The notes beneath the pieces were generated by a model. The model saw nothing but the letters and a program-made list of their open reading frames with translations. It had not been told where the DNA came from and made no database searches. The translations under genes were made by a program, and so were the position numbers. This document shows, one piece after another, positions 20,563 through 46,954 of a stretch of DNA of 64,000 bases. Position 1 is the stretch's first letter, and the number at the start of each line of letters is the position of its first letter. This stretch comes from Octopus vulgaris (taxonomy: Eukaryota): positions 162,254,001-162,318,000 of the forward strand of contig OX597817.1 in the NCBI GenBank assembly GCA_951406725.2. Reading direction: 5' to 3'.

Positions 20563-20709
<147 letters not shown>

Positions 20710-20734
20710 AAGGGTGAAAAGGAACACACGAGTT

Positions 20735-22114
20735 GATATATATGAAAAAACAAGTAAAAAATAGAAAATGCTAAAATAATTTTATAGTGAACATTTCAGT
20801 ACCGGTTTCGGTCATTTTGAGACCTTTTCAACTGTAACGATTAAATAATTAAATTTAGAAAAATTAGAAGAAAAGTTTTTTTAAAAGAATATTTCTATAG
20901 TAGTGTTCAGATTTAAGTGGCATTCTGCCTTTCTCTGACTCCCTTGTTTGCACTTGTGTGTTCGAGGTAGTTGTGAGTTCTTGGTAGGGTAGTAGAGGGA
21001 AGGCTGGTGAGGAAAGGGGGTGGGAGAATCTGGGAGTGCCCTGATGGTCGTATTTTGAATGGTCAGTGGCGGCTGGCAGTCTCAGTTCAATTCAGGATTG
21101 TTTATAGAATTAGCGTAGGTGTTATACTAAAAAACATTAGTGACAAACTTAAGGGGTAGGGGGTGGAGAAGTAGGGACGATACAACCTCGAGACAAAGAA
21201 TAAGTAAAGAAAATCTCTTTATTACAAAATACAAGCCACTTCTTAACGGGTCTACGACAAACAATTAATATACCTCAACTTTAGAATAAAAGAAAAAAAT
21301 ATATATACACACACAAATACTACACTCCATAGAATCCATTACTAATCAGCCCCTTCATAGCTATATTTACACCCATTCATATTCTCCCTTCTCTGTTTTT
21401 TTCTTCTTCTTCTTCTTCATCATCATCGTTATCATCATCATCGGCGTCATCATCATCACCACCATCATCACCACCATCTTCTCCTCCTCCTTCTTCTTCT
21501 TCTTCTTCTTCTTCTTCTTCTTCTTCTTCTTCTTCTTCTTCTTCTTCTTCATCATCATCGTTATCATCATCATCGTCGTCATAATCATCACCACCATCAC
21601 CATCATCTTCTCCTTCTCCTTCTTCTTCTTCTTCTCCTTCTTCTTCTTCTTCTTCTTCTTCTTCTTCTTCTTCTTCTTCTTCTCCACCCCCTACCCCTTA
21701 AGTTTGTCACTAATGTTTTTTAGTATAACACCTACGCTAATTCTATAAACAATCCTGAATTGAACTGAGACTGCCAGCCGCCACTGACCATTCAAAATAC
21801 GACCATCAGGGCACTCCCAGATTCTCCCACCCCCTTTCCTCACCAGCCTTCCCTCTACTACCCTACCAAGAACTCACAACTACCTCGAACACACAAGTGC
21901 AAACAAGGGAGTCAGAGAAAGGCAGAATGCCACTTAAATCTGAACACTACTATAGAAATATTCTTTTAAAAAAACTTTTCTTCTAATTTTTCTAAATTTA
22001 ATTATTTAATCGTTACAGTTGAAAAGGTCTCAAAATGACCGAAACCGGTACTGAAATGTTCACTATAAAATTATTTTAGCATTTTCTATTTTTTACTTGT
22101 TTTTTCATATATAT
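20735..22114 (+). mobile_element. 5'-truncated Penelope-like retroelement with inverted pLTR
   Basis: Near-perfect ~435-bp inverted repeat 20735-21171/21678-22114; spacer begins with ...RISKENLFITKYKPLLN (21173-21268), matching a GIY-YIG endonuclease C-terminus; hammerhead motif in each arm; (TA)n flanks. Confidence 0.85.
22011..22058 (+). ncRNA. Minimal type-I hammerhead ribozyme, U3-A8 core variant (mirror copy at 20792-20839, minus)
   Basis: CGTTACAG-TTGAAAA-GGTCtcaaaatGACC-GAAA-CCGG-TA-CTGAAATG. Confidence 0.7.
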
Positions 22115-22143
22115 ATATATATATATATGCATACATGTATGTG

Positions 22144-22175
<32 letters not shown>

Positions 22176-22215
22176 TATATATATGTGTGTGTATGTATGT
22201 ATATATATATTTATA

Positions 22216-22246
<31 letters not shown>

Positions 22247-22269
22247 ATGTATGTATGTATGTATAAATT

Positions 22270-22510
22270 TATAGTAGAAAATTGGATAAACCGGCTTTAA
22301 TTACAAATTACATTTGTTTCTGTGCAATGGCAACAGCTACAAATTGCTGAGTTTTCAATCTCATACCATTACATAAATTATTTTATGCAATTATTTATAA
22401 AGTAATTAACAATGGTATGAGAAACTCAGCAGCTTGCAATTGCTGCCACTGCACAAAAACAAATGTTGAGATTTGTAACTAAAGCCTGTTTATTCCATTT
22501 TCTTGCTGTA
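22270..22510. repeat. Diverged fold-back with ~100-bp arms
   Basis: 22270-22370 is the reverse complement of ~22412-22510 at moderate identity. Confidence 0.7.
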
Positions 22511-22975
22511 TAAAATTTGATATATAAATTCTATACGGAAACAGAGTTCCACGTATTTATTCAGCTCAAGGTATAACCCCGCAGTATGATAGGATATGGC
22601 AGCCGATAACAGTATAGAAGCCTTTAAAATGCACGTCACGCGGTCATTACTTACATAATATTAAATGTGTGTGTGTGTGTGTAAAGTAAAGTTAAAATCC
22701 AAGGATCAAGGTGTAGGAAGATAGTAGGTTTCTAGCAATCCGTAGAAGGTATAGCAATCAACTTTCAGGAACTATAGGGGGTTATTGACGTATAAGGTTG
22801 TAAGTTTTTCCCGTATCGAAGTTCGATGAGCTGAAAAAATTGTTTTATAGCTTATAGTTAGTAGCAGGGGTTACTGTGTATGCGAACAGAAGTTCAAATT
22901 TAGGGAAAGAAGCAGATGAGATTCAGGCTTCATATGCTTCATAGCAAGCAGAACCGCGGAAGTAGTAATTATCCA

Positions 22976-23347
22976 GTGGTTAGGGCAGCGGACTCGCGGT
23001 CGTAGGATCGCGGTTTCGATTCCCAGACCGGGCGTTGTGAGTGTTTATTGAGCGAAAACACCTAAAAGCTCCACGAGGCTCCGGCAGGGATGGTGGTGAT
23101 CCCTGCTGTACTCTTTCACCACAACTTTCTCTCACTCTTACTTCCTGTTTCTGTTGTACCTGTATTTCAAGGGCCGGTCTTGTCACTCTCTGTGTCACGC
23201 TGAACGTAGTTCTTTTTCAGAACTACGTAAAGGGTACACGTGTCTGTGGAGTGCTCAGCCACTTACACGTTAATTTCACGAGCAGGCTGTTCCGTTGATC
23301 GGATCAACCGGAACCCTCATCGTCGTAACCGACGGAGTGCTTCCTCC
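22976..23347 (+). mobile_element. SINE family B, slightly 5' truncated
   Basis: TSD TAATTATCCA at 22966-22975 and 23348-23357; interrupts one arm of an older fold-back (~22930-23560). Confidence 0.92.
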
Positions 23348-23809
23348 TAATTATCCAAACGAGGGTTAATCCGCTCGCTATTCATTGAGCCAAGGAAGCT
23401 AACATTGTCGTCAAGGGATCCGATGTTGACTCGCAGGAAGTTCGATTGAAAAAACCTTTGATCCATTGAGTAGCTAGCAGATTACCCCTCGTTCGGATAA
23501 TTGGATAATTACTACATCTGAGGTTCTGCCAGCAAAGAAACATGTGTAGCCTGGGTCTCAGGCTGAAGTTGCGTTTGACCCTCTGGCCGATGACTGATGA
23601 ACAATTGGTGACTTCTGTGATTTTTGTCCATCTGTGTATTTTGTATATATTCGTTTCTCTATTTACTAGACATGTTTTTAATTATATATATATATTATAT
23701 ATAAGTAGGTCATATTTTCCGTTTGTTGTCTATTTAATATTTTTGATATTAAATAAATATATATATATATATATATATAAATACATATACACACATATAT
23801 ATATACACA

Positions 23810-23845
<36 letters not shown>

Positions 23846-23923
23846 CATATACATACATATACATATATATATATACATATATATGTATACGTATATGTAT
23901 ATGTATATATACATATATGTATA

Positions 23924-23969
<46 letters not shown>

Positions 23970-24013
23970 TATACATATATGTATATATACATATACATAT
24001 ACGTATACATATA

Positions 24014-24097
<84 letters not shown>

Positions 24098-24705
24098 GAA
24101 ACACACATATATACACGTACACATATATACATACATACATCCTGACAAAAGTTTTCGTTTGGAGATACCTTGTAACACAATCCGCTACTTTTTGAAACTT
24201 TTTATAAAATTGATCTGGTAGAGGGCTGGTGGGTAAGAGGATTTTATAAAGTTGGAAGAGACCCTCTTGGCAACGGACCAGAAGGTTCTATTGCAAGTTG
24301 GGTGGCATCAGAGCTTACCTGCCGCGATTCTCTTATGAAGAATGCAGAAATATCGAAATACAAGAATGAGTTAAGAACGTTGGTAAAGGAAGACGATTAT
24401 AATCGAGGATTGTGGGAACGGATGGGATAGGGAGATGAGAGAAGGGGCCTAAAAGGGCTGCATAAGAAGGTGAAGGAGGAGTAGAAGGAGAAAGATAAAT
24501 GAGCATTAATGGGAGAGAGGGGGGAGAGATAGATAGATAGATAGATAGAGAGAGACAGACAGACAGACAGAGAAGAGGGAATGGTGCAGTGAAGACGGAG
24601 AAGGGAAACAAGAGTCAAAGAAAGTATAAGAGAGAAGAAAGACAGTACAAAAAAAGGAAGGTGAGAATGTGATGCCTGTATATGCACATACGGGTAGCTA
24701 TATAT

Positions 24706-24863
24706 GGCGTGGCTGTGTGGTAGGAAGCTAGCTTTCCAACCACATGGTTCCGGGTTCAGTCCCACTGCATGGCATCTTGGGGAAAGTGTCTTCTACTATA
24801 GCCTCGGGACAACCAAAGCCTTGTGAGTGTATTTGGTAGACGGAAACTGAAAGAAGCCCCTCG

Positions 24864-24896
<33 letters not shown>

Positions 24897-24970
24897 AAGT
24901 ATATGTATATAATTGTGTGCGTCTGTGTTTGTTTCCCCGTCATCGCTTGACAACCGATGATGGTGTGTTT
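24706..24970 (+). mobile_element. SINE family A, 3' truncated
   Basis: Head through TGGTGTGTTTA present. Confidence 0.85.
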
Positions 24971-25251
24971 ATCGCGGTTTACCTATCGCGGTTTACTTAT
25001 CGCAGTTTATTGTTTAAGCTTACGTCGATTCCGCTGTCGTGTTGTTTTGCATTTATAATAAAATAAAAATAATAAGCAAAAATTATACAATATATAAGCT
25101 ACCAATTTAATATGAAGAATCTTTATTAGAAATCTAACTTTGGAACCCCCCAAAGTAAAGGATGAAATAGAACTGAACCTTTTCTCATATAGCATAATTA
25201 AATCTCAGAATGAGAAGGAAGCCTTCACTTTCGTCGCATCCTGGTGGTTAC

Positions 25252-25294
25252 CGCCCGTTGACAAGGGGCAAATATCCCGAAACTAGTCCGAGCG
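25252..25294 (+). ncRNA. Minimal type-I hammerhead ribozyme, U3-A8 core variant
   Basis: CGCCCG-TTGACAA-GGGgcaaatatCCC-GAAA-CTAG-TC-CGAGCG; stem I 5/6 paired; palindromic stem III ACTAGT; GUC triplet. Confidence 0.7.
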
Positions 25295-25582
25295 TATCAC
25301 TCAGGCTTGCGAGGAAGGGATGGCCTCCCTTTGCAAATACTTCAAGGGCACTGATATGGTGTCTAAAGCCAGCTAGAGACGACGATCTCTTGGGGCTATA
25401 AAGCTACAGTAACACCCCCTCCCCTATGTGGTTAGCCATGATAAGATGGCTTCTATACTTTACATTTTCTCATATATATATATAGTTAATCCAAACATGA
25501 ACACAAGAGAAAACACAACAACGCAAGGACGTGGAACAAGTATAGTGTTATTGGACGCTAAGGAAAGGAAAGAAAGAAAGAG

Positions 25583-28815: not shown

Positions 28816-29809
28816 CATGCAGGTTACCGTCATAAAAAAAAGTGAAAATAAATTGTACTATAAAAATGAAAGTAAATTGCGATAGAAACCGGAAGTGACG
28901 ACAGTGAGATACCAAAATTTCATAAAAAAAAAAAAGAACGAATGACCTCATTCATTGTGCCACGTCCTCCGGCACTTTCGTGTATGGCACATTCTAGTGA
29001 TGTGTTAAGCAGCCCAGAAATAGCAGGTGGGACACATCATTTCAATGTACATTATTCAGCAACGAATATCGCTGAAAAGGCAATTCTGTGGCTTGTACGA
29101 CAACCAACACAGTTACATGTGAGCAATGCAGTAATTCCGCACAATTAATGAGCAGCACAAAGAGAACGGGTGGGAAACAGTGGCATTGTTCCTGTGCATT
29201 CACCGGGACTATACGAGCCAATTCCTTTTTTCCTTTTCCTTTTTTGTTTTTCCTTTGAGAAGATCCATTTCACTCGATCAATAATAATAATAATTCAACT
29301 AAGGTATATGTGGGTAGTGGAGGTGCAATGGCCCAGTGGTTAGGGGCAGCGGACTCGCGGTCATAGGATCGCGGTTTCGATTCCCAGACCGGGCGTTGTG
29401 AGTGTTTATTGAGCGAAAACACCTAAAAGCTCCACGAGGCTCCGGCAGGGGATGGTGGTGATCCCTGCTGTACTCTTTCACCACAACTTTCTCTCACTCT
29501 TACTTCCTGTTTCTGTTGTACCTGTATTTCAAGGGGCCGGCCTTGTCACTCTCTGTGTCACGCTGAATATCCCCGAGAACTACGTTAAGGGTACACGTGT
29601 CTGTGGAGTGCTCAGCCACTTACACGTTAATTTCACGAGCAGGCTGTTCCGTTGATTCGGATCAACCGGAACCCTCATCGTCGTAACCGACGGAGTGCTT
29701 CCATTCCATATGTGGGTAAGAGACTGTCGTCATTTCCGGTTTCTTTCGCAATTTACTTTTGTGTTTTAGGACAATTTACTTTCACCTTTTTACGTCGGTA
29801 AACTGCATG
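28816..29809. mobile_element. piggyBac-like non-autonomous element containing a SINE B insertion
   Basis: TTAA|CATGCAGGTTACCG ... CGGTAAACTGCATG|TTAA; ~90-bp imperfect TIRs. Confidence 0.7.
29317..29707 (+). mobile_element. SINE family B (full)
   Basis: tRNA-like head TGGCCCAGTGG/GGTTTCGATTCC; TSD ATATGTGGGTA. Confidence 0.92.
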
Positions 29810-30623: not shown

Positions 30624-31010
30624 GGTGGAAGCACTCCGTCGGTTACGACGATGAGGGTTCCGGTTGATCCGAATCAACGGAACAGCCTGCTCGTGAAATT
30701 AACGTGTAAGTGGCTGAGCACTCCACAGACACGTGTACCCTTAACGTAGTTCTCGGGGATATTCAGCGTGACATAGAGAGTGACAAGGCCGGCCCTTTGA
30801 AATACAGGTACAACAGAAACAGGAAGTAAGAGTGAGAGAAAGTTGTGGTGAGAGAGTACAGCAGGGATCACCACCATCCCCTGTCGGAGCCTGGTGGAGC
30901 TTTAGGTGTTTTCGCTCAATAAACACTCACAACGCCCGGTCTGGGAATCGAAACCGCGATCCTATTACCGCGAGTCCGCTGCCCTAACTACTGGGCCATT
31001 GCGCCTCCAT
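30624..31010 (-). mobile_element. SINE family B (full)
   Basis: TSD AGCATACAGAGT at 30612-30623 and 31011-31022. Confidence 0.92.
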
Positions 31011-35019: not shown

Positions 35020-35850
35020 TTGTCCTGTCTTTTACTGTTTTTATCTTTATTTGTACTGTTTTTTTCTTCATATATATATATATATATATATTCTTTTACT
35101 TGTTTCACTCATTTGACTGCGATATATGAGAAGGTAACCAAATGCCTGGTGACAAATATCACCGGTTCCGGATGTGAATGAGAAATATTCTCAACAATCA
35201 AGTATTCTCCGGAAAAGATATGCTATCAGGGAAAAGTGTTTGCTTTTTATAGAAACAAAGAGGTCTGCTGTGGACACGTGTTTCTACTTCAGTGCCTAAG
35301 TTTACGTTCCAGGAACTGGTACACTCCAAAAGACAGACGGGTTATCCCTCGACTTAGTTTCACAGCTGATGTCGGTCCAAGGTTATGGCACATGACACTT
35401 GACCAAGATGATGCGCAGTGAAATCGAACCTGGAATCTCGCATCTGCAAAACAAACATCTTAACCACACGATCTCACCGTCCAATTGTGGGATTGCCAAT
35501 AAAGATCTCCTGATGTTGTGTATATACGAATGGAAAAAAATCCAAAACAATCGCACGTCACCTTTAAGCATGAAGAGACATAATCTGGTTTACTAAGTAA
35601 TAAATATGCGGAAGGGGTTGTGTTAGAGTACGTACAATTGATTGAGTCACTACTTGATTGATAAAGACTCCTTCCTTCGGTCATGAATGACCATGGGATT
35701 GCTCCTAGAAAGTTACCCTCCGAGGCACAAGTCTGGGCAAGATTGTTTATGGAAGACCAGCGGTCGCCTGTGTAGACCAGCCTCTCCACTCCACACCAAC
35801 GTTATTTCAGATCAGTTGACACCGCTACCGATCTTTATCAGATTACACAC

Positions 35851-36320
35851 TTTCCAACAGAATTTCTCAACTCCCAACATCCTCCAGGACTCTCTCCCCG
35901 TGAACTTCACTTAAAATCCGGTTGTCCTGTCATCCTCCTACGCAATCTAAATGCACCCACACCATGCAATGAAACTCGCCTTGTGGTCAAACTAATGACG
36001 GACCACACCATTGAAGCCCAAATTATCATAGGACACGCCAAAAACGATACCGTTTTTATTCCCAAAATTCCGCTAACCCCATCAGACTGTCCCTACTTTA
36101 TGCGGAGACTTCAGTTCCCTTTCAAACTCAGCTTCGCCATGACAATTAACAAAGCACAAGGTCAATCGCTGAAAGTTATCGGATTGAACCTTCGAACGTG
36201 TTGCTTTCCTCATGGACAGTTCTGCGTCGGTTTTTCCAGAGTTGGTCATCTAGACTACTTATTCATCTAAGTTCCTGAAGGAAAAACTAGAATGTCATCT
36301 ACAAAGTAGCCCTACAGTAG
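35851..36320 (+). pseudogene. Helitron RepHel PIF1-like helicase C-terminal fragment
   Basis: FPTEFLNS..PPGL..LKSGCPVILLRNLN...CN.TRL...RRLQFP.KLSFAMTINKAQGQSL...HGQ..V..SRV; in-frame from 35851, stop at 36270. Confidence 0.92.
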
Positions 36321-46564: not shown

Positions 46565-46954
46565 GAAGAAGGAAGCACTCCGTCGGTTACGACGATGAGG
46601 GTTCCGGTTGATCCGAATCAACGGAACAGCCTGCTCGTGAAATTAACGTGTAAGTGGCTGAGCACTCCACAGACACATGCACCCTTAACGTAGTTCTCGG
46701 GGATATTCAGCGTGACACAGAGAGTGACAAGGCCGGCCCCATGAAATACAGGTACAACAGAAACAGGAAGTAAGAGTGAGAGAAAGTTGTGGTGAAAGAG
46801 TACAGCAGGGGATCACCACCATCCCCTGCCAGAGCCTCGTGGAGCTTTTAGGTGTTTTCGCTCAATAAACACTCACAACGCCCGGTCTGGGAATCGAAAC
46901 CGCGATCCTATGACCGCGAGTCCGCTGCCCTAACCACTGGGCCATTGCGCCTCC
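46565..46954 (-). mobile_element. SINE family B inserted in an older C-type SINE (~46405-47030)
   Basis: TSD GGCGTCATGTA at 46554-46564 and 46955-46965. Confidence 0.92.

Follow-up and report, generated by a model that had tools for sequence, protein, structure and literature searches.

Hammerhead motifs of the window

The DNA under study, here called the window, is a stretch of 64,000 nucleotides (nt) from the genome of Octopus vulgaris (GenBank assembly GCA_951406725.2, contig OX597817.1, positions 162,254,001 to 162,318,000 of the forward strand). It contains three minimal type I hammerhead ribozyme motifs in which the catalytic pair between positions 3 and 8 reads U3-A8 instead of C3-G8. 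Two of them, hammerhead A and its mirror, belong to element A, a Penelope-like element (PLE), and the third, hammerhead B, belongs to element B, a retrozyme-like unit. The features are listed below by their positions in the window.

20702..21174, minus strand: inverted, 5'-truncated arm of element A, carrying the Penelope 'tail' of about 31 nt (20702-20735)
20792..20839, minus strand: mirror of hammerhead A, identical to it, in the inverted arm
21172..22114, plus strand: plus arm of element A, a 5'-truncated copy with the last ~34 GIY-YIG codons, a 3' untranslated region with a (CTT)n/(CAT)n tract, and a pseudo-long terminal repeat (pLTR)
22011..22058, plus strand: hammerhead A, minimal type I, U3-A8 core 22019-22025, palindrome ACCGGU, predicted cut after GUA 22050 (A17)
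25180..25191 (left) and 25465-25476 (right), plus strand: 12-bp target-site duplication of element B
25192..25217, minus strand: inverted arm of element B, 26 nt, made of the tail region of the unit
25215..25466, plus strand: element B, a 5'-truncated retrozyme-like unit (group B, U3-A8/C17 subfamily), ending 174-181 nt past the predicted cut
25252..25294, plus strand: hammerhead B, minimal type I, U3-A8 core 25258-25264, palindrome ACUAGU, predicted cut after GUC 25288

Hammerhead A comprises the core UUGAAAA, a stem II of GGUC/GACC and the triplet GUA at 22048-22050, and hammerhead B comprises the core UUGACAA and the triplet GUC at 25286-25288 and sits at the tip of a long extended stem I. 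Both the positions and the cores are as an earlier, sequence-only reading had stated them. Each motif contains the components of the type I core (U4 G5 A6 N7, A9, G12 A13 A14, A15.1-U16.1, H17 and stems I and II) as well as a Watson-Crick 3-8 pair; most copies of group B, the family of B, lack such a pair. The stems had been described as intact, and they are present, but stem I of A forms seven of eight pairs with one A-A mismatch, stem I of B forms five of six with one C-A mismatch common to most of its family, and pair 4 of stem II of B is G-U where most relatives have A-U. The palindromic stem III is likewise there as ACCGGU and ACUAGU, but within a single motif it amounts to 2 bp and a 2-nt loop, and the 6-nt palindrome can pair between two copies only. 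This short palindromic helix III occurs together with G10.1-C11.1, the combination that marks the minimal, dimer-type hammerheads of PLEs; the G and C were imposed by the search pattern, the palindrome was not. The mirror is an identical motif, but it is part of the insertion of A and no independent element.

A relaxed descriptor that allowed any base at positions 3, 7 and 8 matched the window only three times, at A, its mirror and B, all of them U3-A8, and a similar descriptor yielded no match in 150 simulated dinucleotide-Markov windows. The Rfam hammerhead models gave no match in the window at the gathering score, a cut-off that minimal variants would not be expected to reach.

Element A, a Penelope-like retrotransposon

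Element A is one insertion into (TA)n, which is found on both outer sides. Its arms form a 439-nt inverted repeat of 100% identity and were compared by blastn with the full-length copy L061. The plus arm stops at the first of two 3' ends of the family and lacks the tail. Copy L064 contains a frame of 784 amino acids in which a reverse transcriptase (RT) and, at the C terminus, a GIY-YIG endonuclease are joined in one open reading frame (ORF); the window copy keeps only about the last 34 codons, residues 751-784 of the family A protein aligning to 21164-21265 by tblastn with 91% identity. In a Pfam search of the L064 frame, RVT_1 scored above the cut-off and GIY-YIG just below it (21.1 versus 22.6 bits). 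Additionally, partial tandem pLTRs, an inverted 5'-truncated arm and an optional tail of 30-40 bp were encountered in L061, L109 and the window. Family A also shows the two features that define Neptune elements by motif (PMC8557442), a CX2-5CxxC linker that precedes the endonuclease, and targeting of (TA)n. It is assigned to the Neptune-type PLEs by these motifs rather than by a reference tree, with the qualification that Nematis elements have the linker too. The element is young, and 1921 copies with the exact pattern were found genome-wide, 1912 (99.5%) of which are U3-A8. Chance or an assembly artefact was rejected, as many of the 40 family A matches listed show the inverted-arm arrangement as well and the tail is present on one arm only.

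Among 31 distinct 3' ends of family A, 18 lie 64-67 nt and 10 lie 95-98 nt past the predicted cut. These two ends correspond to the optional 30-40 bp tail of PLEs and appear to mark two internal start sites of the RT (PMC8557442, PMC11167929). In this family, an ORF1 of about 390 amino acids overlaps the RT-endonuclease ORF in the -1 frame, and the latter frame has no start codon at its head; a programmed frameshift at this overlap is possible. In all three copies scanned (L061:4568-4631, L063:4222-4282 and L064:4065-4128) the overlap contains a slippery heptamer U UUU UUA, which is also visible in L109, and little structure is predicted downstream of it.

Element B, a retrozyme-like unit

Element B spans 25192-25466 between its target-site duplications, and the window copy is a truncated monomer. 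The unit of the family is 357-359 nt long, non-coding and arranged head-to-tail, with dimers in L099-L103 and L107; 14 measured repeat units were 353-360 nt long. Non-coding tandem units of 170-400 nt with one type I hammerhead each are the mark of non-LTR retrozymes, and by its sequence element B fits this class (PMC7229834). A circular self-paired fold is predicted for units of this type (z -3.3 to -4.8; five units, 40 shuffles each), consisting of a long stem with the hammerhead at its tip. Of 80 distinct ends in the family that fall short of the unit end, 43 lie at +174-181 and 29 at +217-228, about 40 nt apart; as in A, these are two discrete ends that match the Penelope tail (PMC11167929, PMC8557442). 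Element B was likely copied by a Penelope enzyme, as has been proposed for retrozymes (PMC7229834; 10.64898/2026.07.22.740005). The association of both motifs with Penelope elements, suggested from the sequence alone, was borne out in that A lies in a PLE end repeat and B has Penelope-type ends. A blastn comparison (E<=0.1) of the retrozyme units with 19 loci containing Penelope-like elements or other hammerheads gave no match, and a derivation of B from the end repeat of A or its relatives was rejected on this basis.

A broader search listed 100 of 341 group B copies, 76 of them U3-G8 and none with C3, whereas a narrower search found U3-G8 in 37 of 100 listed copies; about three quarters of the family of B are U3-G8/U17. 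Decay of G8 in a CpG, copy by copy, was rejected as the main cause of the A8 of B, since UUGACAA occurred about 60 times and UUGAUGA twice in 100 listed rows, and since the states cluster on the tree (7 changes versus a shuffled mean of 42.9).

A search for expression listed no RNA data set containing the sequence. In sequencing runs guessed to be RNA or of unrecorded type (six, then four), contigs of the B family were present, with levels and ends not readable from contigs, and in three guessed-RNA runs the family was not enriched over a neighbouring short interspersed element (SINE). In run X7, from another organism and likewise guessed to be RNA, a 162-nt contig related to group B (L102:2836-2999) reached a depth of about 2800, compared with less than 40 for the other listed pieces. 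The type of this run is unrecorded, and the contig possibly represents abundant retrozyme RNA.

Structure and covariation

Covariation was analysed in 32 of 106 retrozyme rows chosen for diversity and intact flanks, whose relatedness inflates the counts. Pairing was found in 94.6% of 448 cells, with at most 52% in slid controls, and two-sided changes in nine of 14 pairs. The loop-III bases were complementary in all 32 rows (UA 16, CG 11, GC 4 and GU 1), which the search pattern does not impose; the G-C pair G10.1-C11.1, also present in 32 of 32, is imposed by it. RNAalifold detected two-sided changes in 18 of 24 pairs. The minimum free energy (MFE) structure of the A dimer is the double hammerhead. 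Explicit dimer folds scored -23.5 and -19.2 kcal/mol. The unconstrained MFE structure of a short B fragment is not the double hammerhead. Many U3-A8 motifs of autonomous type (L221, L224, L225, L229 and L230) end in GUA, as does hammerhead A (22019/22050), which would allow a competing U3-A17 pair; unlike these, the U3-A8 retrozymes mostly end in GUC.

Core states across the genome

The genome (2.8 Gb, 227 contigs) was searched with the pattern N3 UGA N N8 A G, 8-20 nt, C GAAA C NN G U H, in which stems were not required. The copies in this pattern class are not independent, and some matches are decayed or misparsed. Among 6283 motifs, U3-A8 accounted for 5299 (1835 + 3464; 84%), C3-G8 for 441 (7%), U3-G8 for 391 (6%) and C3-A8 for 152 (2%), with 49, 69, 41 and 28 matches, respectively, to the reversed-pattern control. 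Architectures with an extra base after A9, without loop III or with a very short stem II escape the pattern, so C3-G8 may be under-counted. Watson-Crick 3-8 states made up 91% of the motifs, and the odds ratio of paired versus unpaired states was 39, again among non-independent copies. The loop-base palindrome was perfect in about 91 of 100 listed U3-A8 rows by hand count (25% expected). At positions 3 and 8 only transitions were amplified, with a single T8 among 400 listed rows with open positions.

The sequence-only reading had called U3-A8 swaps rare, which does not hold for this genome, and about 1,300 such matches in Schistosoma PLEs have been in print since 2014 (PMC4209133). It had also warned that CUGANGA-only searches would miss these motifs; such a search would indeed miss about 93% of the pattern class here. 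The count of 3-8 states that it proposed gave U3-A8 as the family state in A (1912/1921), but not in B, where U3-G8 prevails among the listed copies.

On contig C5 (125262556-125262895), eight C3-A8 hammerhead-like motifs are listed head-to-tail with a period of 31 nt and constitute a minisatellite of the motif alone. For the motif at L221:6746 (minus strand), a better parse is a minimal C3-G8 hammerhead in which position 6 is U, stem II has 4 bp and loop III is absent; rows similar to it occur among the U3-G8 matches.

Ancestry and direction of change

From 171 distinct hammerhead contexts, the 106 that matched one of four references over at least 140 nt downstream were used for a retrozyme tree, with positions 3, 7, 8 and 17 masked; the loci were sampled by state, so proportions in the tree are not frequencies. 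The tree contains three groups, B, C and D, which are 38-51% apart, with a diversity of 1-7% within the subfamilies of B and C and of 20% in D. U3-A8 is found in 10 of 12 rows of D and in the deepest rows of B and C, and is likely the ancestral state of these retrozymes, as judged from the 106 copies. In group B, U3-G8 with U17 is derived and forms several supported sub-branches. In group C, three C3-A8 rows and 12 C3-G8 rows form one branch (100/97), with the C3-G8 clade inside it (98/88). The order with the fewest changes places U3C first and A8G second, whereas loss of G8 at a CpG after the full swap costs one more step. The C3-A8 subfamily comprises at least 16 motifs at 11 loci among 100 listed, one of them a three-unit array. 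One branch of group C likely returned to C3-G8 through an amplified C3-A8 subfamily.

Autonomous relatives of A were compared in an unrooted set of eight rows, six of which share 46-91% protein identity and are all U3-A8. A further autonomous family, H, is full-length in L220 and carries motifs at L220:5782 and 9759 (minus strand) with a U3-G8 core and a 2-bp stem II. This young family has 116 near-identical copies, with U3-G8 in 99 of 100 listed, and a protein 55-58% identical to that of A. A paired A17 gives the best fit of its stem I, and the row nearest to family H is a single decayed C3-G8 copy.

The idea that a paired core leads to longer tandem arrays was rejected. By hand counts of listed rows, tandem insertions were more frequent in C-G copies of group C (8/18) than in U-G copies of group B (3/35; p 0.004). 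U-A copies of B are, however, seldom tandem either, and the contrasts within group C are not significant (8/18 versus 1/11, p 0.10; 8/18 versus 4/15, p 0.47), which points to a group effect.

Proposed mechanism and alternative explanations

We assign a probability of about 0.68 to the interpretation that A and B would be weak, dimer-dependent hammerheads in which the 3-8 pair is favoured but non-essential; U3-A8 is likely an inherited stand-in for C3-G8. Two motifs would pair by way of the 6-nt palindrome and stem I to form a double hammerhead, which would cut after 22050 (A) or 25288 (B) and trim tandem transcripts to unit length, the RNA of B probably being circularised. The Penelope RT-endonuclease would start cDNA at internal sites past the cut, at +64-67 or +95-98 nt in A and at +174-181 or about +217 in B, and copy across the hammerhead. 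Every insert reads across the cut and ends far downstream of it, which suggests that the template was uncut or circular; strong cleavage would then not be needed for each jump, and a weak ribozyme would suit. In the long run the 3-8 pair would be favoured while moving among U-A, U-G, C-A and C-G. In favour of this interpretation stand the circular folds of the B units, the covarying stems and dimer palindrome, the dimer folds, the discrete 3' ends and the 91% share of Watson-Crick states. Dimer cleavage of such short hammerhead variants was reportedly observed by Lunse et al. in 2017. U3-A8 is described as natural and active in vitro (PMC3088659), and an Anolis PLE hammerhead cleaved only with protein (PMC11167929).

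Several points weigh against this interpretation. U3 of A can pair with A17, and does so in the dimer MFE structure, mirroring the inhibitory, inactive C3-G17 pairing (PMC3884650). The amplified U3-G8 families show that the pair can be lost. In a pairwise-mutant scan of a type III hammerhead, strong rescue was reported for G3-C8 only, other double mutants having low activity (PMC9901934); minimal PLE hammerheads show poor cleavage in vitro (PMC4209133), and insertion by the Anolis PLE protein in vitro was unaffected by core mutations (PMC11167929). Among the 19 loci, blastn revealed no pLTR partner of B. Finally, the retrozyme tree is midpoint-rooted only, with a bootstrap not fully settled, and a clade of the U-A rows is not rejected by approximately unbiased (AU) tests for either B (p 0.23) or C (p 0.33). 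Since these tests are not significant, the nesting order is not proven, and the polarity of change rests on U-A in the outgroups.

A bolder version, which we entertain tentatively but would not expect to hold, makes U3-A8 the default core from which lineages cross an active-site fitness valley openly, from U-A to U-G in two families and from U-A through C-A to C-G in a third, with each intermediate amplified as a subfamily of its own because dimers tolerate weak cores or relatives with the palindrome in common cut them in trans. If true, this would be a dated natural record of stepwise compensatory evolution in a ribozyme catalytic pair, with every intermediate assayable.

It is unlikely that today's hammerheads are in essence inert passengers, or mere structural marks that serve the Penelope protein, with U3-A8 inherited and U-G and C-A spreading as nothing needs cutting. 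The amplified U3-G8/U17 retrozymes with their nested sub-subfamilies, the U3-G8 core of family H, the U3-A17 trap in A and the neutral core mutants would all suit such passengers, as would the good proliferation of Naiads without a hammerhead (PMC8557442). The explanation has to contend, however, with stems I and II and the dimer palindrome showing compensatory changes between groups that are 38-51% divergent, with the restriction of amplified changes at positions 3 and 8 to transitions, and with the likely return to C3-G8 in group C.

Complementation, which overlaps the preferred reading of weak dimers, would let mismatched cores persist because, in a mixed double hammerhead, a relative (U3-A8 or C3-G8) that has the palindrome and stem I in common with them supplies the catalytic half for their cut site. 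In the dimer geometry, core and cut site do lie on separate strands; within group B, ACUAGU and stem I are common to U3-G8 and U3-A8 members, and within group C both C3-A8 and C3-G8 members have ACCGGU. Co-expression would be required, however, the U3-G8 copies have also exchanged C17 for U17, and family H is uniformly U3-G8, with the ACCGGU of A but a different stem I. This explanation is quite unlikely.

Very improbable is the original proposal that each family independently made a recent C3U and G8A double change as a strictly selected, fully active ribozyme: the near-uniform U3-A8 of A, the odds ratio of 39 and the lack of shared sequence between A and B beyond the core would suit it, but U3-A8 is basal in all three retrozyme groups and common to the six autonomous rows, no C3 occurs among the listed A or B rows, and the B family is mostly U3-G8. 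What stands of that proposal is that the two elements are unrelated outside the core and that the pair is favoured, as in family A; U3-A8 was likely inherited from old ancestors in both lineages, and the pair is not required for spread, as the B family and family H indicate.

With respect to annotation, a CUGANGA-only search is blind to most of the pattern-class motifs of this genome. Moreover, high-copy U-G, C-A, U-A and C-G cores on a near-identical background provide a ready series for testing cleavage rate against PLE mobility, and the 357-nt unit, with its fixed ends, its tail and its inverted arm, strengthens the case for Penelope enzymes copying retrozymes.

Other features of the window

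Two high-copy SINE-like families were observed, the first at 22960-23350, 29426-29703, 30626-30903 and 46571-46810 and the second at 24700-24970. Several copies of the first are 97-99% identical, which indicates a young family. A frame at 35776-36267 (plus strand) resembles, by its motif, a Helitron/PIF1 helicase fragment.

Comparison with known systems

Neptune-type PLEs with a C-terminal endonuclease (EN+; Craig et al. 2021, PMC8557442) resemble family A in the order of RT and GIY-YIG, the DKG and GxKF motifs, the zinc-finger linker and the CCHH endonuclease, and also in partial tandems, an inverted 5'-truncated arm, a 30-40 bp tail, (TA)n targets and a hammerhead near the 3' end. Family A differs from the elements as described there by its U3-A8 core with A17 and by its ORF1 of about 390 amino acids overlapping the RT ORF in -1.

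The metazoan non-LTR retrozymes (Cervera and de la Pena 2020, PMC7229834; Li et al. 2026, 10.64898/2026.07.22.740005) share with B the non-coding tandem units of 170-400 nt, a GC content below 50%, one type I hammerhead per unit, a self-paired circular fold and a proposed mobilisation by PLEs. Compared with these accounts, B is distinguished by a PLE-style minimal core, a 2-nt palindromic loop, a superfamily with four core states, tailed 3' ends at fixed positions, and 5' inversions, and it is known here as DNA copies.

Similar in the core itself are the Cercyon PLEs of Schistosoma mansoni (Cervera and De la Pena 2014, PMC4209133). Their end repeats contain a type I motif in which U3-A8 replaces C3-G8, with a small palindromic helix III and G10.1-C11.1; opposite-strand motifs lie 100-700 bp apart, and a dimer model was given. 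There, U3-A8 (~1,300) is less frequent than the C3-G8 minimal set (~2,000), in contrast to its 84% share of the octopus pattern class, and the consulted parts of that paper describe no U-G or C-A families and no direction of change. Natural U3-A8 covariants of canonical hammerheads (Perreault et al. 2011, PMC3088659) contain the identical compensatory pair, but as a few examples in a broad survey compared with the high-copy lineages found here. In the open-access literature, the supplements of PMC4209133 and PMC3088659 excluded, neither amplified U3-G8 or C3-A8 families nor a return to C3-G8 were found, nor any rescue data besides those of the papers named here. The U3-A8 swap itself is known, and what the present analysis adds is U3-A8 as the commonest form in the pattern class and the likely ancestral one, together with an allelic series of core states.

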